From Macrostomum lignano (Eukaryota): a stretch of DNA of 64,000 bases. Position 1 is the first letter of the stretch. Each line of letters starts with the position of its first letter. The notes beneath the pieces are model-generated. The model was not told the origin of the DNA. It searched no databases and worked only from the letters and a program-made list of their open reading frames with translations. Both the position numbers and the translations under genes were made by a program. Location: positions 3,573 to 67,572 of the forward strand of contig NIVC01003956.1 in NCBI GenBank assembly GCA_002269645.1, written 5' to 3'. This document shows positions 30,261 to 63,856 of the stretch, piece by piece.

Positions 30261-31305
30261 ATATTGTCCCATGACTGAGCGTGCGTTTTTGGTCCAAAAA
30301 GCGTGCATTAATCTTTCAGGCTATGGCCCAACCCTATGCGGCGTAGCCAAAAAAGCGTGCAGATAATTAAAAAAGCGTGCAGATGATGAAGTAGAAGACG
30401 ACGTTGTAGTACGTCTTATGCAGAAGGAGAGCGGGAGTGCTACGGTCGAAGTAGTCACCCAGTTTCTGTAGGTCCGATGGCTCCATGGCCTGGAAGTGGT
30501 CCACGCGGCCACCGCAGGCAAAGAAAAGACGCCCACCGGCCTTCAGCATTTGATTTGCAGAGTAGAATTGACCATCGGAAATGATGTTGATGCCCCGGTT
30601 CTTCATCAGGTAGCGGAACAAGGCAGCGCTAATGCACACGAGGCTGCTAGGAGCATACGGCTGGCCATCAGTCTTGCGAAGAGTGCCGTAAAAGTAGCGC
30701 AGGCCAACGCTCAGCTCCTCAGGTTGCGAGGTGTCCAAATTGACGCGCAGGTGCGGATACTTGGCCAAGAAATCGCGAAATTTCGCGACGTATTGAGCCT
30801 CATGCTTCTTAGATGATTTTACATCGGTCTCTTGCTCCAGCACCCGGATTGATGCGTCAAGGTCGATCGAGGCCAAGTCGTCGTTCAAATCAGGGATGGG
30901 GTCGAATAGGCGGTTCAGCTCCTCGCTGTCGTCCACACTAGTTGCTTGGAGACGTAACTGCTCGTCCACAAGCTTCTCAACGTTGGCCCACTCCAAATGG
31001 TGGGAAATCTCACCGGCCGTCATGCCACTTCTCATGCCGTTAGGAAATAATGAATCCATATGGGGCCAAACTCACGATCAGAAGCTTGTGCATAGCAAGA
31101 AATTGTCTATGGTCACAAAGAAAATGTCTATGGTAGGAACTCCTAGCTGCACGAACAAAAAGCGTGCAGATAATAAAGTACAGTGCTGTGACGAAGAATT
31201 TTTTCAACGCACGCTCAGTCATGAGACAATATGCCTACTCGTGCGATAATAGTCTATGGCACTCGTGCGCTTTGCGCACTCGAGCCAAGACTATTATCGC
31301 ACTCG
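30261..31305 (-). mobile_element. Crypton (tyrosine-recombinase, DUF3504/KCTD1-like) element, 3'-truncated; ORF 30367-31059
   Basis: LRYFYGTLRKTDGQPYAPSSLVCISAALFRYL and INIISDGQFYSANQML. Inverted subterminal blocks at 30261-30290 and 31203-31231; hairpin GTGCGATAATAGTC...GACTATTATCGCAC at about 31241-31303. Confidence 0.85.
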
Positions 31306-31659: not shown

Positions 31660-34600
31660 GACAGACCAATAGCAGAGAACCAAGCAGGTCGCAAAACTTC
31701 TTGAAAGCTGAGCCGGTGAAGTTTTTGTTGTTGTTATTTCCGGCCGGTCAGTCCGGGGGGCGGGTTTGAGCCCCGACCTCCTTCAAGAAGTCTATCACCT
31801 GCCTGCTGATGTTGCTGAGCGTCTGGAGGCTCGGGTTTTCGCCGAGGTGCCGTTCTCTGGCCTGTTGGTGAGAGCGGCAAACATTGATCAGGTGCTCCAG
31901 GTCCTCATCGGCTTCGCCGCAGTGCGGAAACGTAGGGCTGTCGGCTTGGCCAATGCGGTGACGGTACTGCTGGAGCAAGGGGAGTGACCAGTTCGGAGTT
32001 GGGCGAGGGACAAGGAGTTCCCAGATCGTACAGCAGCCCGGAGATCGCGCTTTCGCAGGGCCTTGCTGGAAGGAGCGGAGAAGCGCCTGGGAGTCGGTGA
32101 GACACCTGATGCGGTCGGGCATGTGATTGGAGTAGATCCGAAGGACCGCTGCAAGGCCGAGGTGGATGGCTTCCTCTTCGGCCTGGAAGGAGGTAATAAT
32201 TCCAGCCGGGCCGGTGATCCTGTCCACCACGGTGCGGTTCTGGACGATGACGGCTCCGGCGCCGCTGTGGCTGCCGTCCTTGGCCGAGCTATCCGTCCAG
32301 ATCTCGACGTCCGCAGCTGGGAGTTGGTCAAGCGTCTTGAGGGCGGCGAGTTTACGGATGTGAGGCGGGTCCTCCCTGCTCGAGTTGGTCTTCGTGTTTC
32401 AAGAGATGGACACTTTGGACGTATCAGACCAGGGTGGCGGGGCGAGGGTATCCATGGCGCGTGGGGTGTCGATAAGGCCAGCGTCCGTGGAAGCGTTGAT
32501 AGCCTTACCTCGCCAGTCTTGACGGAAGGCGCCCTGTCTTCCGTGCGCACGAAGGCGCGGTCGAGTCGGTGTCTTGTTCGCGAGGCGGGAGAGAGGAGTC
32601 GGTTGGCGTTGCTGAGCGGCCCTCTTGAAGAGTTTGGCGGCCGCAGCCTTAGCGAGGGTCGGGAGAGGGAGCATATCGGCTTCAGCAAGAAGAGCGTTGA
32701 TAGGCGTAGAGCGGCAGCATCCGGTGATGACTCTGGCCGCCGAATTGTGGACGGTTTCGACTTCCCTGCAGCAGCTCTCCGAGGCGATGGTCATCCAGGC
32801 GCTGGCACCGTAAAGAGCGACTGACTGGACGTAGTTCCGGTAGAGCCGGCTCAGCGCTTCGGCGTTTTGGCCCCAGTCGCGGCCCGTTAGGCACCGGAAG
32901 CCACGCTGCCGCCTTCACATGGCGGGACTGTCCGGTGGACTCTGTCCACTGGCAAAGTGAAGCGAAAAACCGGATCCTCCCTGCGGGGAGCCTACCACTA
33001 CGAGTCGGTGAAGTTGGTTCCTTGGTCGGTGTAGAACCAGCATGGTACACCGAACTCGGGGATGAAGCGCTCCTGCAGAAGCTTGATGACTGTCTTGGCT
33101 TTCTGGTTTCTCATCGGGTAGGCGAATGGATACTTCGAAGTCGCATCGCACAAGGTCAGGATGTAGCGGTTGCCGCTCTTGCTCTTCTGCGCGATTGGTC
33201 CTACTACATCACAGTGGATTCTACCCAGAACTTCGCAGACTGGGAAGCTCTGGACCGGAACTCTCTCTCGCCGTCGCGATTTACTTTCAAGGCATGTGCG
33301 GCACTTACTGATTAAGGTCTTGGTAGCACAGGCTAATCCGGGTCTCCAGAACCGTTCTCGTAGCCGCAGTAACGTCTTCGTCTCCACACAGTGGCGAACT
33401 GTGGAGCTCCTGGAGCACCTGGGCGTCAAGGGCCTCAGGCAGAACAACCTTTGGCGGCTGCTGGCCATCGGACAGGTCAATCAGCAGCAGGCCGTTGTCC
33501 TCCTGCAGGTTCTCGTAGTATCCGAGCAGATTCCACTGCTCCTTTGTCAGTCGCAACCGGGCGTCGAACTCAGGCTTCGGGGCTTCGTTCTCGACCAAGT
33601 TGAGCACGTAGCTGAAGGCTCGGTCAGCGCGCTTGGCGTCAACGAACTGTTGGCGAGTCATCGGCAGCTTCAGAAAGTCAGTGAGCACGGTGCGGCATGG
33701 CTTAGGGGTCCGGATTCCCGCAGTCTCCGCTTTAATGGCTCCAGGTCGATCACAGGGCACCGTCTTGTCGGCGTCAGGATTAGGTCGCTCCGAGGGACTT
33801 TGTCTCGCAACGTCGGCGTTCGTCCATTGATCTCGTCTTGAAGTTCTCTTCGTCGCTCTCTTGACAGAAAATTCCGCAGATGGAGCAGTGCACATGCCTC
33901 CACTGCCTAGCCCAGACGACTCTTGGCTGTAGGTCGAGACACAACACGTGAAGCACGCCTCGTCGCAGGCAGCCGTAGCCGTCGGCTCAATCATCGTCGA
34001 ATCTGGGTGAGTCTTCTGCACTGGGCGGTGTCGCAATGTGGGGTTCGACATCCGACCAGGCGATGAGCAGCTGTCTGTCGGCCCGGAAGACGGAGCTTCG
34101 ACCTTGCAGCTGGCGCGAGATTCTGGCCCCTCTCAACATGGCGAGAGATCTCAGCGAAAGGCTCAGAGGGGTTGTAGTTAGATTGCTGTCCTGGAGTTGC
34201 GTTGCGGGATGTCATCAGAAGGGCTGCTGGTGCGGTGGCCTTTGAATTTTCTTTGGGCGTCTCCAGATTCCGAGACCGGAAGTCTTGGGCGTTGTCAAGG
34301 TCTGCGTCAGCGGTGGCCTCTAGGACTTCGTCCAGGTTGGTCTCCAAATAGCGGCAGTCGTGAGCATCGCTGCAGAGAGCTGTTGTCGCAGTGGCCTCTG
34401 GGTTGTCGTCCAGGCGTTGACTGCAGCGGTGGGCGTCGTGCTGAAAGGCTGCTGGCGCAGTGGCTTCCAGGTCTTCGTCAAGGTCAGTCTCGGTCTCCAA
34501 GTAGCGAGGGTGGACAGTCTTCGGGAGGGCTGCTCTGGCAGTGGCCACGGGAGTCGCGTCCATGTCCGGTTCCAGGTCGAGGTCGTCACCTGGTCGGGCT

Positions 34601-35550
34601 GCAGAACCGGGTTGCTCCAGCAGTCGGCCATGCTCGAAGAAGATCGGCGGCCCCTCCGGTCTTCTTGACAGGGCATCAGCGTTGGCGTGGTCCTTGCCTT
34701 TGCGGTGGTTGAGCTGGAAGCGGAACTCGCTTAGGCGTTCGATCCAGCGGCCTAAAATACCTGTGGCCTTAGTTTGGTTCAGTAACCACAGTAAGGCCCG
34801 ATGATCGGATCGAACTTCAAACTTCTTGCCGATTAAGTAGTGACGGAAATGTCGCATAGCGTCCACAATTGCAAGCAGCTCCTTCTTCGTGACCGTGTAG
34901 CGCTTCTCAGGATCGCGAAGAATGCAATTGGACGTTCGACGCCGTCGGATTGCAGTTGTCCAAGACAAGCGCCTATTCGAATATCAGAGGCATCCGTATC
35001 GAGGACAAACTTCACTGCAAGATGAGAATTAAACTCGGGCAGAGTGAGAACTACAGTTGAACATAAGTTCTTCTTCAGAGTGTCGAACGCGTGCTGATGC
35101 TCGGAAGTCCAGTGCTGCCGCAGGTTGCCAATGTCCTTTCGCGTCAGGGCATGCAGCGGCGCAGTCACTCCAGTGTAGCCGTCGACAAACTTGTGGTAGT
35201 AATTGGCGAGGCCCAGGAATTGTCTCAGTTAAGTAACGGACTGTGGCACGGGCCAATTACGGATCTGCGCAATCTTGTCCTCACAGGTCTTCAGGCCGTC
35301 GGGAGTCACGACGTGACCTAAATAATGCAGCTCCTTGAGGAACAAATGACACTTTTTCGGTTTCACTTTGAGGTTGGCTGCGATGATGCGCTAGAGTACA
35401 GTTCGCAAGTTGTCCAGCTGCTCCTTGAAAGTCACTGAGTGCACCACGATGTCGTCCATGTAGCCAAGCGCAGTCTTTGGCGTCAGGCCGTCCAGGAGCT
35501 TATTGATGCAACGCTGAAATCTGCCAGGACTATCGTGGAGACCCATCGGT
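31660..35550 (-). mobile_element. Decayed Ty3/Gypsy pol (RT C-half, RNase H, integrase) interrupted by a LINE
   Basis: GYMDD, VLDTDASD, RSDHRAL, HANADALSR, HCDVVGP and TDQGTNF motifs; several stops and frameshifts. Confidence 0.92.
31724..33001 (-). mobile_element. 5'-truncated Ingi/I-group LINE (RT thumb, partial RNase H, C-terminal Cys motif, (AAC)n tail)
   Basis: NSAARVITGCCRSTP, FQAEEEAI and CLTDSQALL motifs; tail AAATAACAACAACAAAAAC; 14-bp TSD with 1 mismatch (31710-31723, 33002-33015). Confidence 0.85.
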
Positions 35551-36849
35551 AGAGACTGTCGGACTGGGCATTGGCGCCAGGGGAGCCGCAACGGCGACAT
35601 CCGCAGAGCGGCCAGAGGAGCCGCCACCGGCGACGTCCGCAGAGCGGCCAGAGGAGCCGCCGCTGTTGCCGTCGCTTGAAAAAGGTATAAACCTTAGCTC
35701 GCTGCGAAAACTGTACACGCGCCGCAGCTCGGCTGAGTTCATTTCCCCGGGATTTTTTATTTCCGGCATGAAAACACCATTCAGGTTATTGGAAGTTAAT
35801 TTTGCAACCCATACCGGCGGCAACTGAAATTCATAATTTAAAACGATGAATTTTATGAATGATAAACTAAAATAAATTGTATAGCAAAATCTGGATAATT
35901 GCAGAAAGAATAAAAAGAACTCGCCTAAAATAGACTACTTAAAGTTTAATAAATTGTTTTAGGGCTCACCATAAGCCATTCGCACGGCTGCGCGAACCTC
36001 CTTCCGCATCAAATCAACCGTAGGTTGTCGCCCTGACGATTGCGTAAGCTGATTTTCGGATGACAGAAGTTCAAATTTCTAAAAAACGCCGTGCGTCGAT
36101 TAGTATAGGAGATTAAAGAGATAACCAGTATCCATACATTAGATATTACAAGCAGAACCAAACAGAAGGATATTAAAATATAAATTCCTACTGAATTTCT
36201 TTCTTGACATACTCTTGCTAGTCCTTAAATACTGTTATTATAATTACCTGGATAAGACCACACTCCGCGTGGAGAAATTCGTCTAATCCTGGAGACGCGC
36301 ATACACGGAGATTCGTCCCGTCGCGCTTCTTAGAAATAACAACTACATGGTAGTTGTTAAACATCGCACGGGCCTAGACGAAGAATTGCGTAACGTCATT
36401 ATGGAGGGAGAAAAAAACAGTTCAGCCCAACTGCCGATCTGATCATTTACGAAAAAATATATTTCTGATAGCTAAATTCCATATCGTACTTAGCTTTACC
36501 ATACTGTCTATTATTACCAGTTCCTCCAACTCAAGCCCCGATGGGCATCGCTGATGGCTCTGCTCATTTGCCTCCTTGGTAACATTCTAGCACGGCCCTG
36601 TCGTCATCGGTGAGTTTCTTGAACTCATTAGCTAAGAAAGCCATCGGTTCCATCGAAAAGCGGTCTGAAAGATAAATCCAAACAGTTTAAACGAAAACTA
36701 AATTGCTTAAGTCACTGATTTTAAACTTAATGAATAAAATATGCTAAACTTACTGGATCCTCTTAGCTTCACAAACATGGACCATGCACTTCTTTTTCGA
36801 ACTTTGCCAAGGCGGCCTATAGTTAAAATAAAAGCACTTCTGGAAAAGC

Positions 36850-44997: not shown

Positions 44998-47400
44998 TTA
45001 GAGCTCCATCTCCATGCCGATGTCAGGCAAGTCCGGGTCGCCTTCGGCGAGCACCTCAGGGTGGCGCAAGCTGGGCTCGAACAGCTGACTGCCTCGCAGG
45101 TCAGGCTGAGCTGTGGCCGGCTGCTCCGGCGCGGGCTGATCGGCTGGGTCGACTTCGCTGTCTTCGCTCGACTCATAGGGCAGCATTGGCCGCTCTGTCT
45201 GGCGCGGCGGCTCCTGTGGTCGATCTGCCATCATCTGCGGCACCTTGATGATGTTGTTGCGGTGAACTAGCATTTCAGCTGGGCGTCCTCGGCGGGCTGT
45301 CGCTGGCTTGATCCAATACGCCACTTCTCCGACTTTCTTGACGACCTTGTACATGCTCTTGTACGGCCGGTGGAACTTGGGCAGCTCTCCCAGTTCGAGC
45401 TTCGGGTTGGCCAGGCAGACCAGGTCTCCGGGCTGCAGCTCCACGGGCTTTGGCCGGTTCTCGTAGTACTCCTCTCGGCGCTGGATCTCGGCTCGCAGTC
45501 GCTGTCGCACAATTCGTTCTGTCTCGGCCAGTCTGCGCTGATGTTTGGCAATGTACTCCGGGAGATCAGCTGATACATCCAGTCGGTCTAGGGTGTTATC
45601 GATCGGATACCGGTAGGGCACTCCGTAGATGACATAATGCGGCGAGAACCCGGTTGTACGATTGACTGCTGATCTTAAAGCTGTTAAAGCGGCTGGAAAC
45701 ATCTTGTCCCATTGCTGATGGTCTTCTAGGAGACAGGTGAGCACCTTCTTGATGTTCTTATTGCACGACTCAGCTTGTCCATTAGCCCATGGCGAATACG
45801 GCGGCGTCGTTGTCTGCCGGATGCCGTAAACTTCGCAGAAGTGCCGGAACTCGTGTCCTGTGAACTGTTTCCCTTGATCGGAGTGAATCCATGCCGGGAT
45901 TCCGGTGATCGGAAACACTTGTTCCTGCAGGAGCATTATGATGGTCTTGGCCCGCTGATTCTTCATGGCGAAGGCGAAGGGGTATTTCGACGTAGTGTCG
46001 ACTTAGGTCAAGATGTACTTGTTTCCTCGGCCTGTCGGGTCTCCAGTGGGGCCCAGGATATCGATTGCACATCGCCCATAGATTTCACAGACCGGAAACG
46101 ATTGTACATGCGCCGGAATTCGTCGCCGTCCTTTGCTCTGAGTACAGGTCTGGCAGGATGCGACATAGTCGGACACTGCCTTGGCCAGAGCAGTGTGAGC
46201 CGTCCCCGTGCGCTGCGCGCTCTTGTCAGCCCCGCTGTTCAATGTACTCTATCTCCCGCCAGCCAACTTAACCCTTCGGCCCTTGCAATATTCAAACCCC
46301 CACCCCATTCAGTTCTTCTCTCCTCTGCAGCCAATCGGCTTGAGCTTTGGCCCTTCTAGCATTATGTACATCGTATTGCATATCGATCAACCACAATATA
46401 TAATAGCACGCAAGGCCAAGTGGAAGCCTAAGCTTTTTTCCATTCGCAATTAATTGAGCCTTTACAGGCAGGTCGCCAGAACCTTTCGCGCACCTTCGCG
46501 ATGGTGAAGTCTCGGCCCATGTGTCCGCAGTAGGGTGAACCGTGGAGGTCGGCGAACACCGTGGCGTCGAGGCTCTTCGGCAGGACGATCCGCGCCGTTT
46601 CCTCCTCGCCAATATCGTCGAAATGAATTACCAGTAGTCCATCGTCTCGGACTTCGAGCTGCTCGTAGAACGCTAGTAGGTTTCGTTCGTCTCGCGTCAT
46701 ATTCAAACGCTGATTCAGCGGCGGCTTCGGCTGTCGGCTTTCCAAAAGATTGATCATCATGGCGATGGCAAAGTCAGCACGCTGATGAGTCTGGAGCTCC
46801 TCACGAGTGACTGGCCTCGGGATGTGATCAGTTAGATTCAATGTTGGGCGTCGGTTAGTTAAATTAGTCGGCGCGGCTTCGGCTGTGGCGGCATGGTTCG
46901 GGGTCTGGAGCTCCCTCCGCATGATCGCTACTCTGGCCGGTTGCCGGGTTGTTGATGTGCCCGAAGGTCGATCCTCGTCGGTATCTTCGGCGTCACTGTT
47001 GTCGGATTCAGATCGGTCAGCAGTTGATGATGAGTCAGCAGAGCTGTCCGCACCGCTGCTGAATCTCACTCTTTTCTCGAACTTCGGGCAGCGAGCGGGT
47101 TGGCAGCTGTCCTCTCTGGCTGCGCTGTGGTCGCTGTCCGTGCCGTCTCCAGCTAGTAGTCGGCGGCTCCTTGACAGGCAACATGTCGTGCTACTGAAAC
47201 TGGTAGGCGACCTCTGCGAGTCATAGTAACGACTGGCTGATGGCCTCGGCTTCGTCGCCGGCGGGTGCAGCTCTGTCAGCGGCTTGCTGTCGGCTGTCGG
47301 TGTTGCTGGCGGCGTAGCCTCGCCGTTGGACTCCTTCAGCTTAGTCGGCGGTTTCCGTCGCTTACGGCGGGTCGACGGCTTCTTGCTCGTCGCTCGGCGG
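44998..47400 (-). mobile_element. Ty3/Gypsy pol 3' part (linker, integrase with GPY/F-like region), 5'-truncated
   Basis: LHGSPYCGHMG, CQTC, IDILGP, HSDQGKQF and GQAESCNK motifs; closely related to the 31-35 kb copy. Confidence 0.92.
46194..46466. mobile_element. Solo LTR (273 bp) inserted in the integrase HHCC region
   Basis: TG...CA ends; 5-bp TSD AGCAG/GGCAG. Removing it restores WRPALAK. Confidence 0.8.
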
Positions 47401-49127
47401 GTCGAAAATATAATAGACTGAGAGTGATAAGTTGATACGTTGCAGTAGATAGAGAAGTAGAGGGAGAGTAATGTATATATATATATCCAATTGTCAGAGA
47501 GTGAGATTCTGAGATGGGAATTTTATGAGAGTGAGATTATGTAGAGAAAGTTAGGGGAAAGAGGCGATGAAGATGGAGAGAGGAATAGACTAGCAGATTG
47601 GGTAGATCTGCTGATTCGGGGGAATCGAATGTCAAGGTACCCTAAATAAAATAAATGAAGTAGATTGAGCAAGTAGGGTTACAATCCTCTCGCACCTCCT
47701 TATCTTCAATGCAGGAAGTGTTCCGACTCCTCTGCTTTTACTGCCGAATCTGCAGCTGTCAGGTGCTCGGGAATTGTTTGGGAACATTCAGTCATTGATA
47801 AACCGATTGCTGTCTGATGCCAGTGTCCTGTACGGTGACATTATAATGACATACAATACCCACGTGCTTTTGCACATTTTGCACATTGTCTGAGCTGAAT
47901 GCTATGGAAATTTGTTTGCTAGGAATACCCGTTTAGCGCATTAGGTATTTCGATTATTTATCTTTGAATGTTTCTTCTTTTATGTTTGCTACGGAATATC
48001 TCATGAAGTGAAATATATTTGTATTTTTATATTTTTAGGAGAGAGTTAGCGTTTTCAATTCTGCATTTTTTCGAGCTTGAACGTCTTGAGTCTGGGTTAT
48101 GAATAATTCATTTCTCTGTTGTTCCTAAAACAAATACAAGACTATTAATACCAGCTATTTCATTTTTGAAGCCTTTCATTTGCACGAAGTGTCAGTTGTT
48201 TGTTGCCACCTGCATTCAGTATTTAGAATCAAAAGCAAGATATATATATATATATGGAAACCTAAAGACGAACTAACTCTACATCTGTTCATGGGGCTAT
48301 ACGGGCATACAGATAAGATATCGGCTGTGCTCCGCTACCTCAGACACTCAATCATCCTGTCATAGACAGTTTTATGGCAGGAAGACTGTTTTAACCGCAG
48401 GCCCTTATCGAAAAATATATGGTCTGTTGCGCGGACCCCGTGAGTAAGTAAGCAACTGGACACGGGGGCAATGCTTCTCCCTCCGTCTTTCCCCCCAGTT
48501 GGGGGCTTGGGGGTCTTTGTTCCACGAGGGAACTTTGTTCTTTGTTTCTTTTTTTCCCTTATTGTAAATGTATCTAAGAAGGCGCATTTCCAACGAATTG
48601 GGTTGATCACTTCCAAACCTGCTTATCAAAATCGAAACTGCATTTTTATTCCTTGGTCTGTTGGGGCTGACTGGGAAATTGAAAATTTTTTGATAGGAAA
48701 AAAGGCAAATTGGCTAAAACTAAAAAACAATGGCTCTGTGAACTTTTTATGCAAAAGGCTTGCGATGGTATGAATGTCTCTCTCTTTCCCTTCTCTTTGT
48801 TCTGTCACGAAAATCTTTACCGGAGAGACACAAGCCTCATTTTAAATACATGGCCTAAATGTGTTAAAAAAAGAATAAAAAATATTCTAGGATCTACGAG
48901 AACTATAAAGTCCATATTCATGTCTCATTCCCTTACCAAACCCAGACATGACTATCACTGGAACCGCGTACAGTTAAGAAAACAAGTATTGGTTTCTCTC
49001 TTACTCGTTCTGAGCGCTTGTGATAAGAATCATATCCATAACTCTATGGCTCGTAGATAACATTTGACATGAATTTCTAACTCAGTGTGCGTGTGCACGC
49101 TCTCGAAATGCACAAGCATACAGTGGA

Positions 49128-52030
49128 GTGAGTGGACTCACTCTGACTCACTGCCCAGTGCCCCACTCAAAAGTTTTTGCCCTTGCTCCTACCCTCTGCT
49201 CTGATTCCATATCCTCTCCCCTGCTCAAAAACAACGAGAACAATTTCATACCAGATGTTTGTTTTCCTCTCCTCTCCATCCCGGGAATTATGCGCTTCGA
49301 AATGTCAGCTGGCAAAACACGAGCCCCTGGAAGGATGTCTTATCCAAGACACATCTTATCTGATGTTCTGACGATCACCAAAGAGCTGCGAGTCTGCAGC
49401 TTGCACTTCCTGTCTACCGCCTACAACTGCCCAGCTTTAAGACACAGTGCCGGAGCACGGCTGCGCTGGGACGCCCTTCCAGACCTCGAACTGACGATGC
49501 CTCGCTTGAGTCTTTACGATATCAAACCAGTGGTAGCTAGAAGTGATGAAGAAGCGGATAACACCTACCCACCTCAGCTCGAGCGCTGGGACAAAGATCC
49601 AGTAGCGGTAGCTATGCCTCATTTAATTCTGTCTACGCAGTCTAGAAATCAGTGTGTTGCAAAATCTGCCATAACCGCTGGGCAAAGCAAGACTTTAGTA
49701 CAGCTAAGAAAAACACGTCAGCGCGTGAGCAGACAACGAGCGACCATCAAGCGTCTGCAGCAGCAAATTTGCAAGGCTAAGGGGATTAAATTCGGAAGTA
49801 CTCCAATGCGTCGTATGGCCTCAAACAGCAGGAAGCTTCACTTCATCGCAGCTCGCGGCATGAGATGGTCAAAGGATGACCTCACCGCTACAATAAGGCT
49901 CCACCATAAAAACCCGGCTGCATACAGGATGCTCAGAAAAGATTGGCAGCTACCCCTTCCTTCGGAGTCTGCACTCAAGCGCCGGACATGTCAGTTCTTC
50001 AAATCGCCAGGAGTCTGCTCAACAACTCTGATGCTGCTGAAACAGAAACTTGCCACAGGCCCAGAACATCAGCGAATAGCAACCCTATGCTTCGATGGGA
50101 TGAGCCTATCACCTAGCGTTCGCTACGATCAACACAAAGATAAGGTCATCGGCTTTGACACAAGCAGCTCCACTGAAAATGCTCAGCAAGTTCTAAAGCC
50201 TATCACGGAAGCCATCGTTGCTGTTTTGCGAGCCGTTTCAGCAAACTGGAAGCAAGCTATCGCCTATTACCCAGTTCATCGAACTCTCGGACAGTCGGGC
50301 TTTGCCGCTGCAATCGAAAATTGTCTCCATGCGAGTCATGCTATCGGTATTCGAGTCATTGCTCTTGTTGCTGACCAGGAGACAACACAGTGGGCACTAC
50401 TCTCTCGAATGGTAAGTTAGTTATTTGGCTACTAACTTGTATTTGTGGGACTATACGAGGACTATATAGTCTATACGGGGACTATATCTATATAACTAAA
50501 TCTGAAATATCATTTACTGATTTACAAAATTCCGAGTAATTAAATGAAAGCTAAATCGCCTAAATGTGATTTGCAGGTCTCACCATCTGCGCCTTTTTTC
50601 GTCACCCAGTGAGCCTAAAGCCGGTGTATGTGATAGTAGACATACCACACTGTCTGAAGAATCTACGCAATGCGCTTGTGAAAAACGATGTGGCTTTTGA
50701 CGGAAACAAACTGGCAAAATGGCAGCATGTTGTGGATTTTTTTGAAGCCGATCGTAGCCGTTCACTTCGATTGGCAAGTCGACTTACTGACGCTCATATC
50801 GCCCTACCGCTTGGACAGAAGATGCGCGTGTCTATAGCAGCTCAAGTGCTCAGTCATTCAGTTGCCAGCGGTATGCAAACTCTTTTGCATTATCAGGAAA
50901 TAGAGCCCAGCGCTTCGCAGACGGCGGAGTTTCTACAGCGCGTAAACGATCTGTTCGATATGCTGAACTCCGCAATAGTGCACGACAAAGGCTTCAAGCG
51001 GCCGATCTGCCGCGAGTCGCTAGCTGCACAAACTAACGAGCTGCGCAAAGCTGAGGCCTTTCTGCAGAGCTTGCGATTTTTACCGAAAAGCGGCAAGCCT
51101 GAAAAGTCGACTATGAAGTTTAAAGAAGCTTGGCGCCTTTCAGCTGCATCGATTCGTGAGCTCTCAACTGCGCTGATCGACGAGGAGAGTTTCGACTACG
51201 TCTGCACTCGCAGTCTTACTCAGGATCACGTGGAAGTGAGTTGTAGAATAATTTTAATGATAATAAATTAAAATAGCGAGTTATCAATTAAATATTCAAA
51301 AAATGGCAACGTTTTGCAGAATCTCTTCAGCATCATAAGAGGCCGAAATGGTTTCAATGAGAAGCCCGAGCTGGCAGCATTTGTCGGAGCATTGAGATCA
51401 GTGGCAGCTAGCGGACTTGATCGCCCTGATTCTGCAGCACGGAATTGTGAAGACGATGGGTGCACTGCGGCTGTGACAGCCAATCTTTCGCCTGCTGCTG
51501 CAGACACGAGCTGCGCATCTCCAAGCGACTTTCCTACGACCAGCATTGCTCAGCAGGCATCGCAGCCATCTCAACCAGATCCTATTCTTGCTGAAGCCAC
51601 TAAGTACGTCGGTGGCTTTGTGCTCAAAACAAGCCGTGTTCTGGAATGCTGTGCATGCAAGCAGGTGCTAACTGCCGCAGAGCCTAGAGGTGTACACCTA
51701 AAGAACAAGCTATTTAGCCATGCAGTCAACGGACTGACGCAGCCTTCAGCCGCTGCCCTTCTTGCGTTTTCAAGATTGGAGGCGTCTTTTTTAGAAAAAA
51801 TTGAAACATGCGCTTTGCTTCCAAAGGTGGCTGCACAAATTGTTAGCAAACTCCTGTCTGATGAAATCCAATTTCCGGCTTGCAGTGCACATTTTTCTGA
51901 TGTGCACAACAGTATTGTCTTGGCATTTGTTCGCTTGCGGTTGCATCATTGGTGCCGGGAAAAGATGCGCAGCTTGAAAGCTGCTGCTTATAAGCGGTGT
52001 GCAGTTCGCAAAGTAAAGAAATTTAATTAA
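49128..52030 (+). mobile_element. P-element/THAP9-like transposase gene, three exons (introns 50412-50576, 51236-51319)
   Basis: RVCSLHF (THAP), LCFDGMSL, DIPHCLKNLRNAL, KMRVSIAAQVLS and TQDHVE|NLFSIIR motifs. One frameshift in the T6 run near 50594; the 5' end is unclear. Confidence 0.88.
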
Positions 52031-53990: not shown

Positions 53991-54417
53991 TGTGCATTTT
54001 TTGAGAGGATGATAAACGGTAACCCTGCCTCATTTCGCTACAAAGAAAATTTGTATACTCGTCAGACAAATGCTAGGGCTAATACTGCAGTATATGCTTG
54101 GGACACACAGAACATATATGAATTTTTATATGGTCATTAAATACAGCCAGCCCCCAGTCCCAACCAAGCAATCATGAAAAGTTATAGAAACACTATAAAA
54201 ACTATAGAAGACTGATACCAAGCGCCATGTACATGTGTTGTATCCCCCTTCCTCGCTGGCACGGCCGGGTTGGGTGACGGGTAGCGGTGTCGGGGTTCGG
54301 GTACTGGACTGCCCAGGGCTTACGAGCTCGATCGGCGACCCCGAGGCGTACGGACACTTCGGGGGGAGGTCAAGGTTGAGAAGTCGAGAGAGAGGGGAGG
54401 GGCGGCTGTGGGCGGGC

Positions 54418-54710
54418 GGCCACTCGACAGCCTGGTGAGTCAAGGAAGAGAGAGAGGGCTGCGGGCGGTCGGCCACTCGACAGCCTGGTGAGTCAAGGAA
54501 AAGAGAGAGGGCTGTGGGCGGGCGGCCACTCGACAGCCTGGTGAGTCAAGGAAGAGAGAGAGGGCTGCGGGCGGTCGGCCACTCGACAGCCTGGTGAGTC
54601 AAGGAAAAGAGAGAGGGCTGTGGGCGGGCGGCCACTCGACAGCCTGGTGAGTCAAGGAAGAGAGAGAGGGCTGCGGGCGGTCGGCCACTCGACAGCCTGG
54701 TGAGTCAGAC
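54418..54710. repeat. 53-bp tandem repeat inside the LTR (5 full + 1 partial here; 3 full + 1 variant at 62488-62685)
   Basis: GGCCACTCGACAGCCTGGTGAGTCAAGGAA(G/A)AGAGAGAGGGCTG(C/T)GGGCGG(T/G)C, alternating two variants; each has TGAGTCA. Confidence 0.92.
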
Positions 54711-54830
54711 TGAGGAGAGAGTGAGAGAGAGAGAGATCAGGAGAGCGACCCCGAGGAACACAGGCAATTGTCTCGACAGCTTACCGGGCCGGGTCGATTA
54801 TAGCACTCATACACGGGAAGGCCGATCGAT

Positions 54831-54873
54831 TGCAATAAATTGAGTCTTCGCAGTAAGAGACCGTCTTTACGGC
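54831..54873 (-). other. Spliced-leader exon-like sequence in the 3' LTR
   Basis: Minus strand GCCGTAAAGACGGTCTCTTACTGCGAAGACTCAATTTATTGCA; matches the M. lignano SL as I recall it, apart from the final TG. Confidence 0.85.
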
Positions 54874-55406
54874 TGATCGCTGGTCACGTTCGTTTATTTA
54901 TCGCGGTGGGCGCAAATGGGCGCAGGCACGGTGAGAAAAGGGGCGGGGTCTGAGCGTCGCCTTAAATAACGAGTAAAAAGGGGCAGGGGCGCAAACAAGG
55001 GGGGGGGAGAAAGGGCTTAAACAATGGAGCTGATTGACAGCTGATTGGCTGCGGCGAGGGGAGGGTGGAAGCGCGCACGGCCAGGGAGAGGGAGAGAGAG
55101 CAGAGGCCCAGCCAATCAGCACGGCTAGCCAAAGGGCTAAACAGCCAAGGCGAGAGAGAGAGAGAAAGAGAGCAGAGGCTCAGCCAAAGGGCTCATAGCT
55201 CCAGACTGGCTTGAGCCGGGGGGGGGGTAACAATAATCAACTACCAAAGTCAACAACTATCAAAGTGCACTTGCACCAGGGGAGCACTGTGACACAGGTC
55301 ACAACACCCTCCCCCCTAAAAAAAGAAAACGACGCGCTTTGACTGAATGAAAATGAAAAAAAAAATGTAATGAAATGAAACTGAATGAAAGAGACCAAGA
55401 GTGTCA

Positions 55407-56101: not shown

Positions 56102-56983
56102 CTAGACCGCCACCTCCGCCGCCCGGCGCAACAACCCCAACACGCGTCCTCCGTCGATTAGTTCAAACTGAGGGATCGCAACACTCATGACGAACCGAGT
56201 GCTTCGCTTGAAGGCAGGCCGCCGCCAGACACGCCGAGCATGACCCCGACACTTGGCGCTGATGTCACGGAGAATGAACTTGACAGTCTGAGCCAAAAGC
56301 TCGGCGATTTCGCGTCGATGATCCAGCCGCTCGCTGCCGCACAGTCCCACCATTTCAGTCAAAAGCCGGAACATCGCAGCTGGACTCCCCGACAACAAAG
56401 CGTGCCGAAGCTCCGACCGGATTCGAGCTCTTCGCTGCGTTGCCTCCCCGCTCCAGGTGTATTCCACCTCGGTACTCGGCTCGCTCCTCATCAGCCACGC
56501 TGGCGACTCCCGTTGGTCGATGACGAGCTCCGGTTCGTCTTCTGACATCGAAGTTTCGCCGTCGGATTCATTCAAGAGCTCTTCTTCCTCTGACTGCGTG
56601 ATTTCACAGCAGCTCTGAGCAGTCTCCTCGCCGCCGCAACCACCACGCTCGCTTCCTTCCGACTCCCTGTCCTCGTCTGACTCTTCTGTTTCGTCTTCAA
56701 TCGTTACGACAAACTCCTCCGGGACGCACATCCCATCCGGCGGGACAAAATACCGGGCGCACTCGAGCGGGTTGCTAACGGCATCCTGCCCGAACCGGTA
56801 GTACAGCGCTCGTCGAAACGGACATAGCAGGACCGCACTCGCATGCTGCAGCCTCTGGAAATTCTCCGTTCCACCGGGTCCACACTTGTCGGGGTGCCGT
56901 CGCAGGCTCTCACGGCGGTACGCACGTCGCAGCTCCTCCTCCGTCGCGAAGGGGCTGACACCAAACTCGGCGTAGAGGTCCAT
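56102..56983 (-). CDS. J-domain (DnaJ/Hsp40-type) accessory protein, 293 aa, inside the retrotransposon
   Basis: MDLYAEFGVSPFATEEELRRAYRRESLRRHPDKCGPGGTENFQRLQHASAVLLCPFRRALYYRFG is a complete J domain with HPD. It is followed by an acidic linker and a helical C-terminus. ATG lies 16 nt after a TTGCAG acceptor. Confidence 0.9.
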   Translation of the reverse strand: MDLYAEFGVSPFATEEELRRAYRRESLRRHPDKCGPGGTENFQRLQHASAVLLCPFRRALYYRFGQDAVSNPLECARYFVPPDGMCVPEEFVVTIEDETEESDEDRESEGSERGGCGGEETAQSCCEITQSEEEELLNESDGETSMSEDEPELVIDQRESPAWLMRSEPSTEVEYTWSGEATQRRARIRSELRHALLSGSPAAMFRLLTEMVGLCGSERLDHRREIAELLAQTVKFILRDISAKCRGHARRVWRRPAFKRSTRFVMSVAIPQFELIDGGRVLGLLRRAAEVAV

Positions 56984-57189
56984 GCCCGGAAAGCAGTGCC
57001 TGCAACAACCACGACTCACTTTTGAGAGCAGGGCAATGGTTCCTTCGAGCCTCTTTGGGGCGCCGATCCTTCATCCCTGATGGCAGGGTTGGGCAGGTGG
57101 GACCTCCACTGACGGGCCTTAAGAGGGGAAATATATATTTTTGTTTGTGAAGCAGAGGCAATAACACGAGCCCAGTTTTCAATAACGCG

Positions 57190-57360: not shown

Positions 57361-60300
57361 TTAATAATAAACGGGCGTTCCATAACGCTGCGGAACCCTT
57401 CGATCCCTCTGGGGTCGACCTTCGATGACTTCAACTGGCGCTTCCGGCTGCGGCTGCACTCCTGGCTGCTGCACATCCATTGGTTCTCCCTCCTCTCGAA
57501 CCCGCCCGGAATGTCGCCACCATCGCTCCTCATCCTCATCGTCCGATTCCTGCGAGTCCTCCCTGACGGATTCCGTCTCTTGAGCAGGACCTGGGTGGTA
57601 CCTCCTTGGTGCAGGACGCCGAGGGCCACCGGTGCCGTCGACCGGGTACTTCCGGTACCGAGGCAGGAGGTTGTTAAAGTGCACCACCTTGATCGGCTTC
57701 CGTCGACCTTCCTGTCGAATCCTATAGCGCGTCTCCGACAGCTTCTCGAGAACTACGGCAGGTCCGGTCCAGGGTGAGTGGAGCTTCGCTTTGGCACCGG
57801 CCTTCAACACGGGGTTGTAGACGAACACCTCGTCGCCAGCCACGAATTCTCGACCCTTCACCTTCCGGTCGTACCAGTCTTTCTGCACTCGTTGATATGA
57901 CGTTATTCTCTCACGCACCACCCGATGGGCTTCCACGAGCGTCTCCCGCAGGTTCTGGACTTCCTCGCAGTACGGTTCGATGTCCAGTGGGCGCGCCACT
58001 CCCAAGTCAACTGGCAGAGACATCTCGCGACCATGCAGAAGGAAGAAGGGTGAGTAGCCGGTGCCGCGGTGCACACTGGAGCGATACGCCATGAGCGCCG
58101 GGGCAACGAATTCGTCCCACCGCCTCTGATCCGGCTCCTTCACCAGGTGCGCCCGGATCACTGCAGTCAGCGTCTTATTGAAGCTTTCCACTTGGCCGTT
58201 TCCAGAGGGGTGATAGGCGGTCGTACGCGTCTTTCGGATATTCAGACTTTCGCACAGCTGGCCGATCAATTGCGACTCGAAATTGGCTCCCTGATCCGAG
58301 TGGATTGTTCCTGGGGCTCCGTAGTGACAGACCCACTCCTCGAGCATTGCCCTTGCACAGGTGCTGGCCGTCTGATCTGGCACCGGTACTGCCACTGGCC
58401 ACTTACTGAACGCGTCCTGCATCGTCAGTATGTATTTGTTGCCTCGGACGCTGGTTGGCAGTGGTCCAATCAAATCCACCATCACTCTTTCAAACACATG
58501 GCTGCTGGGAATCGGCTCCAATGGGGCCTTCCGCCGCATCCCGGGCTTGCTCCGGTTACAGTCGTCACACCTTCGCACAAACTCCTCGACCTCTCGCTTC
58601 AAGCCGGGTCTCCAGAATCGGTTCCTGACTTTCTCCAGAGTCTTTGCTACGCCGAAGTGTCCACCTCCTGGTCCAGAGTGCAGCGTCTGCAGAGCGTCGG
58701 GGATCAATTTCTTCGGGAGAACAGCCCGCGGTGGGTGACGTCCCAGATCCTTGATGACGAGGGTGTTGTCCACAATTTCCAGCCGAGGCTTTTGTGCCCA
58801 GATGGCTCGGGTCGTTGGTGACGCACCCCGAGGTGGCTCTTCGTTTGCTCGGCCGGCGTGCATCGACTGGTAAACTGGAGCGATGTCGTTGTCCACAGCT
58901 TGTGCTGCTGCCAGCTCATCTCGGCTGAGCAACCCGAGCAGCGTCGTTACCCTGACCCCGGGGAGGTCATCAGTCCGGCACGACGGGCAGTTATCCATTT
59001 CGGGATGTCGTCGCGTCGGCTTGCGTGACAGCGCGTCCGCATTCTGATGACGCGCCCCTGGCCGATGCTCCACTGCGAAGTCGAATGGCGCCAACCTCTC
59101 CATCCACCGAGCCAACTGGCCTTCCGGCTGCCTCATACTTCGGAGCCACTGCAGACTTGCGTGGTCGGTGCGCACCCGGAACCTCCGGCCAAGTAGATAG
59201 TACCGGAACCTCTCTGCGAATGTCACCAGCGCCAGGAGCTCGATTCGTGTCGTGCAATAGTTGAATTCGGCCCCTTGCAGACGCCGACTCCCGTACGCAA
59301 TAACCCGCTCTGACCCGTCTTCTTGTACCTGCGACAAGACTGCTCCGAGACCCTGTCGGGTACTTCCATCGGTATCCAAGATGAACTCACCAGCCGTGGG
59401 GTCGAAGTTCGGGTAGGCCATCACGCGGCAACCGGTCAATTCTTCTTTCAGCTTTTTGAAGGCCTCATCGTGTTCCTCTCTCCAACTGAACGGCTTGTCT
59501 TTCTTTGTCAGATCAAAAAGTGGTGCAGCGACTATCGAGAATTCTGGTATGAAGTTTCGGTAGTAACCAGCCAGACCCAGGAACGACTGAAGGTCTTTTG
59601 CATTTCTTGGAATGCTCCAGTCACGGACTTCCTTGATCTTCTCCGGGTCGACATCGATTCCGTCCTTTGACACGACGTGGCCAAGGAATTTGACCTCATC
59701 GGCCAGGAATCTGCACTTAGATGGCTTTAGCCTCAAGTTGGCTGCGCGCAGGCGCTGGAATACCGCCTCGAGATTCGTTAGATGCTCGCTGACAGTTCGG
59801 GACCAAATGATGATATCGTCGATGTAGACGAGCGCCATTTTCCACAGAAGGTCGTGTAGTACCATATTCATCAACCTTGTGAATGTCGCCGGCGCATTGG
59901 TCAATCCGAAGGGCAGCACCTTGAACGCGAATTGCCCCCGATGCGGAATGACAAAAGCAGTCTTTTCTTGATCCTCCCTTTTGACCTTAACTTGCCAATA
60001 GCCGGAGCAAAGGTCGAGCGTCGAAAATACAGCCGCACCTCCGAGCGCTTCAAGTGCGTCATCGACACGCGGGATTGCTATGGCGTCCTTGACAGTTCGT
60101 TGATTCAACTCTCTGTAGTCGACACACAGTCGCAGTTCCCCATTCTTCTTACGGACACAGACCACTGGCGAACTCCACGGCGATTGGGTCGGTTCAATCA
60201 TCTTCGTTGCCAAAAGCTCGTCGATTTGTCGGTCGACTTCGCCGCGCCAATGTGGCGGTAGCCGTCGCGGAGGCTGTTTTACGGCTGTTCCGGTGGTCTC

Positions 60301-60453
60301 AATTTCATGCTGCACGATGTCCGTCGTCCCGAGGCGCGCTGTACTCTCTGCGAAAACATCTGCGTATCGATTCACCAATCTTAGGAAACTCGCTTTGTCT
60401 GCCCCCGTGAGCTGCTTGGAGCCGTGCTGGTTCAGTGCCGCCTCTGGTCCCAT
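57361..60453 (-). CDS. Gypsy pol: RT, RNase H, integrase (open for 1030 aa)
   Basis: LCVDYRELN, LPFGL, YIDD, ILDTDGS, TDHASL, HQNADALSR, HHCC, VDLIGP / SDQGANF / QVESFN (DDE), and SPWTGP (GPY/F). Confidence 0.97.
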   Translation of the reverse strand: MGPEAALNQHGSKQLTGADKASFLRLVNRYADVFAESTARLGTTDIVQHEIETTGTAVKQPPRRLPPHWRGEVDRQIDELLATKMIEPTQSPWSSPVVCVRKKNGELRLCVDYRELNQRTVKDAIAIPRVDDALEALGGAAVFSTLDLCSGYWQVKVKREDQEKTAFVIPHRGQFAFKVLPFGLTNAPATFTRLMNMVLHDLLWKMALVYIDDIIIWSRTVSEHLTNLEAVFQRLRAANLRLKPSKCRFLADEVKFLGHVVSKDGIDVDPEKIKEVRDWSIPRNAKDLQSFLGLAGYYRNFIPEFSIVAAPLFDLTKKDKPFSWREEHDEAFKKLKEELTGCRVMAYPNFDPTAGEFILDTDGSTRQGLGAVLSQVQEDGSERVIAYGSRRLQGAEFNYCTTRIELLALVTFAERFRYYLLGRRFRVRTDHASLQWLRSMRQPEGQLARWMERLAPFDFAVEHRPGARHQNADALSRKPTRRHPEMDNCPSCRTDDLPGVRVTTLLGLLSRDELAAAQAVDNDIAPVYQSMHAGRANEEPPRGASPTTRAIWAQKPRLEIVDNTLVIKDLGRHPPRAVLPKKLIPDALQTLHSGPGGGHFGVAKTLEKVRNRFWRPGLKREVEEFVRRCDDCNRSKPGMRRKAPLEPIPSSHVFERVMVDLIGPLPTSVRGNKYILTMQDAFSKWPVAVPVPDQTASTCARAMLEEWVCHYGAPGTIHSDQGANFESQLIGQLCESLNIRKTRTTAYHPSGNGQVESFNKTLTAVIRAHLVKEPDQRRWDEFVAPALMAYRSSVHRGTGYSPFFLLHGREMSLPVDLGVARPLDIEPYCEEVQNLRETLVEAHRVVRERITSYQRVQKDWYDRKVKGREFVAGDEVFVYNPVLKAGAKAKLHSPWTGPAVVLEKLSETRYRIRQEGRRKPIKVVHFNNLLPRYRKYPVDGTGGPRRPAPRRYHPGPAQETESVREDSQESDDEDEERWWRHSGRVREEGEPMDVQQPGVQPQPEAPVEVIEGRPQRDRRVPQRYGTPVYY

Positions 60454-61179
60454 GGATCGCAGCTGGGTCGTAAAACCGACGCTTGCTCTTCGATGCTGGC
60501 TACCAGAACCTCTTGAGCCGGATCTGATGGTCGAAACCAGCCGATGACAGCTCCCTTCCGCAGCCGCAGCTCGGAGTCCGTGACATTCGCGAAGTGAACT
60601 GGTAGGGTGTTGCCCTGCTGGATGAGGCAGACGCTCCTGGCTAGCATTGGTCTCTCATCGCTCTTCAGTTTTTCGTCTGGCTCGGCGACGCGCGAGCACT
60701 CCGGAATTCTGTGTCGCTGTTCTCCGAATCCTGGCTGAGACGGTCCGTTCGTGATTGGCCGGAATGATCAAGTTTTCGTTCAGGTACAACCGGCAGACGA
60801 CTGGTTTGTGCTTGGTCTCTCGGATTGGCACACGTGAACCGTTCACGCGGAAAACTCCTCCGGCGAAATCGATTTGGCACCGGTGGCGGCGTAAGAAGTC
60901 GGTGCCTAGCAACAGTTCGTAGCCGACCCCTTGGACCACCGCAATTGGCGTCTGTAAAGTTTCTGATCCGAACTGTAGGGGAAGCGACGCGCATCCTAAC
61001 ACATTCATGGGAGTTCCGTTCGCTGAGATCAGGTGGGTTTCCGAAGGGCTGAGTTCAACTCGAACCGACTTGCTCAACTGCCGCCAGGTCCTCTCGTTCA
61101 CCAGCGACATGACCGAGCCCGAATCCAACAGACACGGCAACTCAATCTCGCCAATTTTTACCGACACGTAGATTGACAC
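60432..61179 (-). CDS. Gypsy aspartic protease and spacer region, split by frameshifts
   Basis: LLDSGSVMSLV and LLLGTDFL motifs; frame changes near 60690 and 60450-60500. Confidence 0.85.
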
Positions 61180-61282
61180 GGGATTAAAAGCTGTTGCAGG
61201 TTGATCTCTATCTCTTGAGCAGTCCGCCGGACATCCTGCTGCACGTCGCTCCGGGCTGCATCTTCGTCTCGGGTTGGGGCCT

Positions 61283-62263
61283 CTACTGTCTCGGCGGAAC
61301 TCCCTCGCCCCTGCGGAAGTTCCCCTTGCCGTTTCCCTGTTGCTGACGGGTTGGGCAGTTAGTCGCGATGTGCCCTGGCTTGTTGCAGAAGAAGCAGCGA
61401 ATTCCTCCCGTTCGTCGAGGCTTCTGATGGTCGCCTTCGTCGGAGTCGGTCGGTCGAGCTGCGGCGCTGCTATGCGGTTCCGCTCTCAGCGACTCGAGCT
61501 GAACCACTTTGCCTTGAAGCTGCCTCACCAGTTTCTTCAACTCCTCGAGCTCTTTGTCCTTTTCTTGGGAGTAGGCTCCATCCTCCCGAGGCACAGATTC
61601 CGCCGCGCCGCTCACCACGAAGACTCCTCGGTGGCCGCTGCCAGTTGCTCCAGCCGATCTCGGTCCCTTCGCCGCCTTGGACGCCGCCTCGAGCTGCCTC
61701 ACCGCGCGTTGTGCTGCCACCAGACCTTCGGGCTGCTGCAGGTAGAGCTTCTCTCGCTGGAGGTCGGAGAGTCTCACCCCTTGCATGAAGCGATCCTTCG
61801 CGAGGTCGTCCTGCAGCTCGGCAGTTGCCGCCGGGTAGGCACAGCGCACCAGTTCAAGGAGAGCATCTGCGTAGGCCTCCAACGACTCGCCATCCTTCTG
61901 ATCTCGGGTTTTTAGCTCGACCTTGCTGTCCTGCTCTGTCCGGTACCGGGAGAAGCGAGCCTCCAACCGGGCGGTGAATCCCTCGTAGTCCAGCGGATCC
62001 ACAGGATCGTCGGGTCCCGGCAGGTTCAGATTATCGACCGCAGCGTACGCCGTAGCGAGATCCAGCATGCTCATCAAGTGCTCGCGGCGATGCTCCTCGT
62101 CAATCTCGGCGGAGTCGCAATAAGCGTTGAAAGAGCGCAGCCAGAGTCGAAAATTCATGCTTGACGTGTACTTCACGGGCTTCGGGAGTCTCGGTGGCTG
62201 GGCTGGTCCATCCGCTCGCAGACGCTCGGCTAGCAGCCGAATCAGTTCGTCCACATTCGCCAT
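61283..62263 (-). CDS. Gypsy gag, 326 aa
   Basis: Starts 25 nt after the PBS; CCHC knuckle CFFCNKPGHIATNC. Confidence 0.93.
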   Translation of the reverse strand: MANVDELIRLLAERLRADGPAQPPRLPKPVKYTSSMNFRLWLRSFNAYCDSAEIDEEHRREHLMSMLDLATAYAAVDNLNLPGPDDPVDPLDYEGFTARLEARFSRYRTEQDSKVELKTRDQKDGESLEAYADALLELVRCAYPAATAELQDDLAKDRFMQGVRLSDLQREKLYLQQPEGLVAAQRAVRQLEAASKAAKGPRSAGATGSGHRGVFVVSGAAESVPREDGAYSQEKDKELEELKKLVRQLQGKVVQLESLRAEPHSSAAARPTDSDEGDHQKPRRTGGIRCFFCNKPGHIATNCPTRQQQGNGKGNFRRGEGVPPRQ

Positions 62264-62287: not shown

Positions 62288-62305
62288 GTCCCTGTTCGGG
62301 CGCCA
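62288..62305 (-). promoter_or_regulatory. Primer-binding site, tRNA-Lys(UUU)
   Basis: TGGCGCCCGAACAGGGAC, the canonical 18-nt Lys3-type PBS, 1 nt after the 5' LTR. Confidence 0.93.
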
Positions 62306-62813
62306 ATGTTGTATCCCCCTTCCTCGCTGGCACGGCCGGGTTGGGCGACGGGTAGCGGTGTCGGGGTTCGGGTACTGGACTGCCCAGGGCTTACGAGCTC
62401 GATCGGCGACCCCGAGGCGTACGGACACTTCGGGGGAGGTCAAGGTTGAGAAGTCGAGAGAGAGGGGAGGGGCGGCTGTGGGCGGGCGGCCACTCGACAG
62501 CCTGGTGAGTCAAGGAAGAGAGAGAGGGCTGCGGGCGGTCGGCCACTCGACAGCCTGGTGAGTCAAGGAAAAGAGAGAGGGCTGTGGGCGGGCGGCCACT
62601 CGACAGCCTGGTGAGTCAAGGAAGAGAGAGAGGGCTGCGGGCGGTCGGCTCGACAGCCTACGCTCACGAGCCTGGTGAGTCAGACTGAGAGAGAGAGAGA
62701 GAGATGAGAGAGAGAGAGATCAGGAGAGCGACCCCGAGGAACACAGGCAATTGTCTCGACAGCTTACCGGGCCGGGTCGATTATAGCACTCATACACGGG
62801 AAGGCCGATCGAT

Positions 62814-62856
62814 TGCAATAAATTGAGTCTTCGCAGTAAGAGACCGTCTTTACGGC
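62814..62856 (-). other. Spliced-leader exon-like sequence in the 5' LTR
   Basis: Same 43 nt as 54831-54873; 19 nt downstream of AATAAA (62881-62876) and 46 nt upstream of CCG|GTAAGC. Confidence 0.85.
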
Positions 62857-63552
62857 TGATCGCTGGTCACGTTCGTTTATTTATCGCGGTGGGCGCAAAT
62901 GGGCGCAGGCACGGTGAGAAAAGGGGCGGGGTCTGAGCGTCGCCTTAAATAACGAGTAAAAAGGGGCAGGGGCGCAAACAAGGGGGGGGAGAAAGGGCTT
63001 AAACAATGGAGCTGATTGACAGCTGATTGGCTGCGGCGAGGGGAGGGTGGAAGCGCGCACGGCCAGGGAGAGGGAGAGAGAGCAGAGGCCCAGCCAATCA
63101 GCACGGCTAGCCAAAGGGCTAAACAGCCAAGGCGAGAGAGAGAGAGAAAGAGAGCAGAGGCTCAGCCAAAGGGCTCATAGCTCCAGACTGGCTTGAGCCG
63201 GGGGGGGGGTAACAATAATCAACTACCAAAGTCAACAACTATCAAAGTGCACTTGCACCAGGGAGCACTGTGACACAGGTCACAACACATGTACAGTGGG
63301 AATTGGGTGATTTAGTTTTGTGTGCAGGGGACAGGAAACTCAGTCAGACCACGCGACTGTATGAAAACTGATTGAGTATCTCGGGACAAAGAAGCAACAG
63401 AAAAAGACGAGCGTCAACTATTCAATCATCATTTCTCTCTTTTCAAGCCTGCTTCAAAAATGAAAAATCGAACGTGTAAAAACATAACTTGTTTCGCACA
63501 AGACACCCACTAGCTCCATCTAAAAATGTTGTTTGAAATTCATGTTTCAGGC

Positions 63553-63856
63553 GAATATCTGGAAAGCGGATTTAATCTAGAGACACGATTCTTTCTGCGG
63601 GTGATACCGACTGGCACACTCTAATGATGTGTAGAGTCCCAAAAGTGAGGCTACTGATACAGCTTGGCAATTCCTGATTGATTTTCCCGGATTTGCCCAT
63701 TTGAATGCATTAGAATTTTCCCGAATCGCCGCCTTCGAATATCTAGAAAAGCGGATTAATCTAGAGACACGATTCTTTCTGCGGGTGGATACCGACTGGC
63801 ACACTCTAATGATGTGTAGAATCCCAAAGCTGAGGCTACTGATACAGCTTGGAAAT
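63553..63856 (+). repeat. About 118-bp direct duplication (63553-63670, 63738-63856)
   Basis: Near-identical GAATATCT...GATACAGCTTGG copies with small indels. Confidence 0.85.

Follow-up and report, generated by a model that had tools for sequence, protein, structure and literature searches.

A host spliced leader in both LTRs of a Macrostomum lignano Ty3/gypsy element as a probable scar of reverse transcription

A Ty3/gypsy element of Macrostomum lignano carries a nearly complete host spliced leader (SL) in each of its long terminal repeats (LTRs), and the anatomy of the junction suggests, with a probability of about 60%, that the leader is a scar of reverse transcription that now travels as part of the LTR. 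The leader was found twice in the window, the 64,000-nt stretch of contig NIVC01003956.1 analysed here, with one copy per LTR and none in 100 shuffles. An LTR element needs its own 5' end for the first strand transfer, and trans-splicing puts another in its place; this transfer ordinarily depends on the R region, as described in the accessible text of PMC12789967. If the scar reading is right, the junction is a base-level record of a trans-spliced RNA that was nevertheless replicated and integrated, in which one can still see where the acceptor and the jump point lay and what was left of R.

The element and its leader

The element occupies 63287-54236 of the minus strand, on which its parts described below also lie, and it is flanked by a target-site duplication. 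Its 5' LTR (62307-63287) is 981 nt long with the ends TGTTG...CAACA, and its 3' LTR (54236-55306) is 1071 nt long. The duplicated CATG is present upstream at 63288-63291 and downstream at 54232-54235; the bases flanking it are symmetric (63295-63288 and 54235-54228), indicating a palindromic target site. An 18-nt primer-binding site (PBS), which we take to be of the tRNA-Lys type, begins one base past the 5' LTR (62288-62305), and a polypurine tract (55307-55317) precedes the 3' LTR. Between them lie gag (61283-62263), with a CCHC zinc knuckle, and a pol region (57361-61485) in the order PR-RT-RH-IN. The TG...CA LTRs, target-site duplication, PBS, polypurine tract and gag followed by PR-RT-RH-IN place the element in Ty3/gypsy (Mdg4), and the Gag-Pol of Ty3 is its best solved relative (E 3.8e-118). 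Between PR and RT the pol frame is broken, both by a stop codon (60657-60655) and by a segment that reads in another frame; the break reflects either decay or a read error, and the uninterrupted pol of an autonomous copy is absent from this sequence.

Three 1-nt indels and one substitution are the only differences between the two LTRs outside a tandem repeat array in U5. None of them falls in the leader region, and the insertion is thus young. The array has a 53-nt period and consists of four units in the 5' LTR (62379-62704), with a pyrimidine tract and acceptor-like CAG sites, and of six units in the 3' LTR (54727-54309). A splice-donor-like GTAAG at 62763-62767 lies 45 nt below the leader slot and above the array and is not the donor of an SL RNA gene; a second GTAAG is found at 62394. 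No sister LTR was found elsewhere in the 64-kb window. Other gypsy remains there are only 34-51% identical to the element in Pol. Two decayed gypsy pol remnants on the minus strand (33010-35552 and 45247-47522) share 34-49% identity with its Pol and have no LTR match.

The leader is found at 62814-62856 in the 5' LTR and at 54831-54873 in the 3' LTR, with identical flanks. These 43 nt are identical to positions 1589-1631 of JAGQZA010000190.1 (locus L001), a eukaryotic contig within a bacterial genome bin that represents host-type contamination of that record. There, the leader begins an SL RNA gene (1589-1697) with a GTAAG donor and three hairpins (z -4.58, with 0 of 200 shuffles as good), and a U1 snRNA gene (1121-1283) lies 305 nt away on the same strand. 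A scan of the genome-contig collection returned this SL RNA gene as its only locus and no LTR. By eye, 62855-62814 also provides 42 consecutive matches to the 44-nt leader printed for M. lignano, whose SL RNA gene likewise has GTAAG right after the leader and three hairpins according to the available part of PMC8629364. What a sequence-only reading of this DNA had called an SL segment is thus confirmed as a true Macrostomum spliced leader, matching the SL RNA gene at 43 of 45 positions in register.

The limits of the homology are sharp. It begins at G62856; A62857 lies outside the leader, and the gene has a different base there. At the other end, the last two positions of the 45-nt slot (62812-62813) differ from the gene and complete an 8-nt palindrome (62819-62812). 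Since the homology stops two bases before the donor, the terminal AUG of the leader is absent from the LTR; this AUG is conserved in flatworm leaders, as stated in the accessible portion of PMC12582326. Beyond the exon, the LTR agrees with the SL RNA gene in register at 20 of 80 positions upstream and 18 of 75 downstream, the upstream comparison losing weight because L001 may belong to another Macrostomum species, and the best local matches outside the exon are 8-10 nt long (E 0.28 or worse). A homology confined to the exon, with neither upstream nor intron sequence, points to a spliced RNA as the source.

Apart from the leader exon, the LTR lacks what defines an SL RNA gene in M. lignano, so far as PMC8629364 could be consulted, and at L001: there is no GT donor directly after the leader, no intron, no Sm-like site and no three-hairpin fold over the corresponding ~109 nt (z 0.66, with 143 of 200 shuffles folding as well). 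Four stretches around the junction folded no better than shuffles (z -1.05 to 0.99), and the best fold, which pairs the leader with the downstream GTAAG, is not significant. Rfam gave 0 matches in the window at gathering thresholds, and no 7-residue translation of the leader was found in any of 153 proteins compared. The reading frames that cross the leader junction are short, and gene prediction is unlikely to have picked them up.

Anatomy of the junction and the scar reading

The motifs named by the sequence-only reading are present with the letters and positions given for them, namely TATTTAA (62951-62945), AATAAA (62881-62876) and 19 nt ending in CA at 62857. TATTTAA is likely a TATA box; at 94 nt above 62857 it is too far away to serve an initiator there and would instead point to a start near 62921. 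AATAAA, present only once on this strand in the 981 nt of the LTR, lies 70 nt below TATTTAA, and a start near 62921 would yield an ordinary R of about 65 nt that holds this candidate poly(A) signal. Similar layouts can be seen by eye in M. lignano LTRs within the available part of PMC12801592, where TATA and AATAAA are about 66 nt apart in id36 and Mlig-id38 shows TATTTAA after CCAAT boxes and a C-rich tract. In the LTR studied here, CCAAT-type boxes occur at 63098 and 63030, and no canonical heat-shock element was found. A second TATA-like box, GATAAATA (62878-62885), overlaps the poly(A) signal and lies 28 or 29 nt above 62857 or 62856. Both TATA-like candidates are one mismatch off the consensus. 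While 62857 as a poly(A) or start site is a prediction, the leader is not placed at random, since only 21 of 941 LTR positions lie 10-30 nt below AATAAA and only two of those also follow CA.

A feature missing from the sequence-only reading is a 9-nt direct repeat around the leader. The final three bases of copy 1 (62854-62862) are the first three of the leader, and copy 2 (62803-62811), which agrees with copy 1 at 8 of 9 positions, starts at the first base past the 45-nt slot. Directly before copy 1 stands a CAG (62863-62865), the putative trans-splice acceptor, so that the sequence past the leader equals the sequence past the CAG at 8 of 9 positions, a match that is short and was noticed post hoc. 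The context of this CAG is weak, with no pyrimidine tract and no fit to YTNCAG, the top host acceptor motif, which accounts for 9,551 of 21,754 host sites in the accessible text of PMC8629364.

The repeat is one of only four near-exact repeats with at least 8 matches in 62960-62740, and an anchored test returned a single solution with offset 0, an overlap of 3 nt and CAG before it. Under a null with Markov flanks, 81 of 40,000 simulations produced such a repeat exactly at the end of the slot, and 3 of 40,000 produced one with AG before it; when 2 nt of slack were allowed, the corresponding counts were 235 and 12 of 40,000. An earlier run of the null gave 13-14 and 34-36 of 6,000. All of these rates are optimistic, as the test was designed after the repeat had been noticed. 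The bases at the junction suggest a 3-nt microhomology whose end is at 62854, rather than a blunt fusion to the CA.

These features can be accommodated by a series of events in an earlier form of the element. Transcription would have started about 30 nt below TATTTAA, and the PBS-containing RNA would have been SL trans-spliced at the equivalent of the CAG at 62865-62863, swapping most of R for the host leader and leaving a short piece of R. Reverse transcriptase could then have copied U5, the short R piece and the leader as far as the cap, yielding a strong-stop DNA whose 3' end would have re-primed near the 3' end of the RNA on a 3-nt match to the first bases of the leader, at a point 22 nt below AATAAA where the 9-nt unit in the 3' R ends. 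Once completed, the DNA would have had two LTRs in which the leader was flanked on each side by the short R piece, and it would have been integrated. What was observed is the element, the identity and limits of the leader, the flanking repeat, the CAG, the overlap and the presence of the leader in both LTRs; all five steps, together with the present start and end sites, we infer. On the available sequence, the leader today is most likely internal to the transcript, at the border of R and U5, rather than at the cap, and its persistence there requires no function.

The sequence-only reading had proposed such an origin, in which minus strong-stop DNA copied from a trans-spliced genomic RNA jumped to the RNA 3' end. 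The exon-only homology, the 9-nt duplication, the CAG and the 3-nt overlap strengthen this proposal, while its blunt join at CA gives way to the 3-nt microhomology. Trans-splicing of transposable element RNAs has been recorded in Hydra, where it concerns ~30% of the long reads from such elements, and at an acceptor of Cer1. Several points count against the scar nonetheless. The CAG context is weak, 3 nt is a very short priming match, and the full-length RNA of Cer1 is not trans-spliced. The two terminal mismatches of the leader need a later change, perhaps a single event, given the palindrome that they complete. In addition, an 11-nt duplication (9/11) around a 43-nt leader describes the region with no more substitutions. 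The breakpoint also rests on one element, since no leader-less sister LTR was seen in the window. Trans-splicing at the acceptor-like repeats of U5 was considered separately as an origin and rejected, the sequence past the leader being unlike those repeats.

Other sources for the leader and its present use

In an unlikely competing origin, the leader came from a host RNA and not from that of the element: reverse transcriptase would have switched template twice during minus-strand synthesis, with a co-packaged trans-spliced mRNA or SL RNA as donor, or leader cDNA would have been inserted in the manner of a LINE with a target duplication of 9-11 nt. Events of either kind also typically leave direct repeats at the flanks along with a short overlap at the 5' end, and here an 11-nt repeat, at 9 of 11, covers both mismatched positions. 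The leader is carried by ~30% of M. lignano genes according to the available portion of PMC8629364. Such an event would not account for an insert that stops no more than 2 nt from the end of the exon and brings along no host exon, intron or poly(A), for the CAG before copy 1, or for a site that lies within the cleavage window of the single AATAAA. The scar reading is preferred here.

A different question is whether the leader has a use in the LTR at present. The sequence-only reading had placed, beside the scar, an LTR with a short R in which transcription starts at the leader so that the genomic RNA begins like a trans-spliced mRNA. The two models address different questions, present use and origin, and both can hold. 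As written, the short-R model fails, as a +1 and a cleavage site at the same A62857 leave an R of about 1 base. A modified form, itself compatible with a scar origin, uses GATAAATA as TATA and a start at 62857 or 62856, so that the RNA begins with a genome-encoded leader; AATAAA then lies in U3, cleavage occurs up to ~10 nt inside the leader, and the leader serves as R. We regard this form as rather doubtful, while noting that the 28/29-nt spacing of GATAAATA suits it and that, by eye, the apparent box of id115 is a TATA-like word that lacks the first T, in what is available of PMC12801592; together, the spacing and the id115 box keep it in consideration. There are retroviruses whose R is 15 nt long and whose poly(A) signal lies in U3, as the accessible text of PMC12789967 reports, and resembling trans-spliced mRNAs might pay in a host whose neoblast genes are 85% trans-spliced, a share taken from the accessible part of PMC8629364. 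On the other side, R could be at most ~11 nt, against 15 nt for the shortest in the cited account; GATAAATA overlaps AATAAA, and id36 has a similar AATAAA context together with a separate upstream TATA in the part of PMC12801592 that could be viewed. The modified form also leaves TATTTAA without explanation, the terminal AUG of the leader is missing, and 43/45 identity in a young element gives no sign of selection.

That the captured leader works in the LTR, with the start site at the leader and the leader forming R, seems improbable to us. If it did, the DNA of the element would encode the trans-spliced 5' end of its host and its RNA would pass as an mRNA of the stem-cell type, while element RNAs given the host leader would retain the terminal redundancy needed for strand transfer. 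Trans-splicing otherwise removes R, and the leader would then be the way in which a retrotransposon has responded to it.

Capture at the DNA level of an SL RNA gene with its promoter, such that U3 now drives transcription from the leader's own start, would place +1 at the leader by descent and is very improbable. A TCACC word noticed post hoc lies 61 nt above the leader, at the place of the proximal element in vertebrate snRNA genes; set against this are the lack of any similarity to L001 outside the exon (20/80 and 18/75) and the lack of GTAAG directly past the leader, a donor by which the host gene is defined. An assembly artefact, by a cDNA-derived or chimeric join, is hardly credible, for although the 1-nt homopolymer differences between the LTRs and the pol frame breaks could be read errors, an identical junction occurs in two LTRs 7,983 nt apart within an element flanked by a target-site duplication, and both copies differ from the host leader at two positions.

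Relation to known systems and other features of the element

Partial leaders near LTR elements of flatworms are already known, while no description of the junction anatomy was found in the accessible literature. The accessible text of PMC12582326 reports partial leaders at 597 loci close to LTR and LINE elements of parasitic flatworms, which were set aside, and its authors suggest the integration of trans-spliced retrotransposon transcripts. The element resembles those loci in having a leader beside mobile-element sequence with other SL RNA features absent, and it differs in that its leader is near-complete, present in both LTRs, located at the predicted R/U5 border and flanked by a repeat. 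The LTR position, junction anatomy and mechanism are given here and not in that text as far as it is available, and its supplement may hold further cases. The scar offers a testable mechanism for the 597 loci. It also carries a warning that counts of SL loci or SL reads can come out too high when LTR copies are included. Should the leader prove to be a start site or R, the element would be a retroelement that encodes the leader of its host.

Trans-spliced RNA copied into DNA is likewise seen in dinoflagellate retrogenes with relict leaders (available parts of PMC5585692 and PMC6050394), but in that case the leader stands at the 5' terminus of a single host retrogene copy, whereas here it is a heritable LTR part of a self-copying element. 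Cer1 of C. elegans, in the accessible text of PMC3315495, is likewise a Gypsy/Ty3 element whose RNA has an SL acceptor; its SL1 is on a 2.4-kb spliced RNA only and not on the 8-kb RNA, whereas the scar implies that a PBS-bearing trans-spliced RNA replicated. MMTV-type LTRs, as treated in the available portion of PMC12789967, have the poly(A) signal above the start and an R of 15 nt, which is the layout that a start at the leader needs, but they involve no host leader, and the layout here allows an R of at most ~11 nt. The closest families are the M. lignano Ty3/Mdg4 elements of PMC12801592, which, in its available part, belong to the same superfamily and, by the leader, the same host group; the U3 of Mlig-id38 is similar by eye.

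The main text of PMC12801592, in the form available, has 0 occurrences of 'splic', 'leader' or 'DnaJ', and four leader words had 0 matches in its 5 supplementary files, where sequence is given for 6 of the 137 families and long cells are cut short. The accessible portions of PMC9911081 and PMC4558846 held nothing on leaders in LTRs, nor did PMC10309623, with 0 occurrences. Within the accessible open-access literature, no account was found of an element in which each LTR has a leader fixed at R/U5.

The element also contains an extra ORF of 293 aa (56102-56983) with an N-terminal J (DnaJ) domain that includes HPD (Pfam DnaJ, E 1.3e-11), an acidic middle and a conserved basic C-terminal part. 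A YTNCAG acceptor ends at 57000, 17 nt before the start codon of this ORF. Relatives close to full length at 33-40% (P0005, P0007, P0008 and P0009) came from a profile search, a plain homologue search having given 0 of 3,015 candidates. The ORF looks like a family trait, since it follows the integrase tail in P0008 and P0006, and the titles and abstracts covered by the literature search described no such ORF.

Just past pol are three 44-nt repeats (57333-57182), whose words we take to be CRE/AP-1-like, and an AT-rich word near 57140; from their sequence, these could possibly form an internal promoter for the J-domain ORF. A long tandem array with a 19/20-nt unit (55999-55387) lies between this ORF and the polypurine tract, and P0008 seems to translate a similar array. 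Elsewhere in the window, an ORF on the minus strand at 30370-31071 has a weak QRICH1-domain match just below the curated cut-off, and pieces of a P-element-like transposase, with TNP-like RNase H N and GTP-binding domains, lie on the plus strand at 49068-52030. The flank upstream of the element holds two copies of a unit of ~185 nt (63552-63856).
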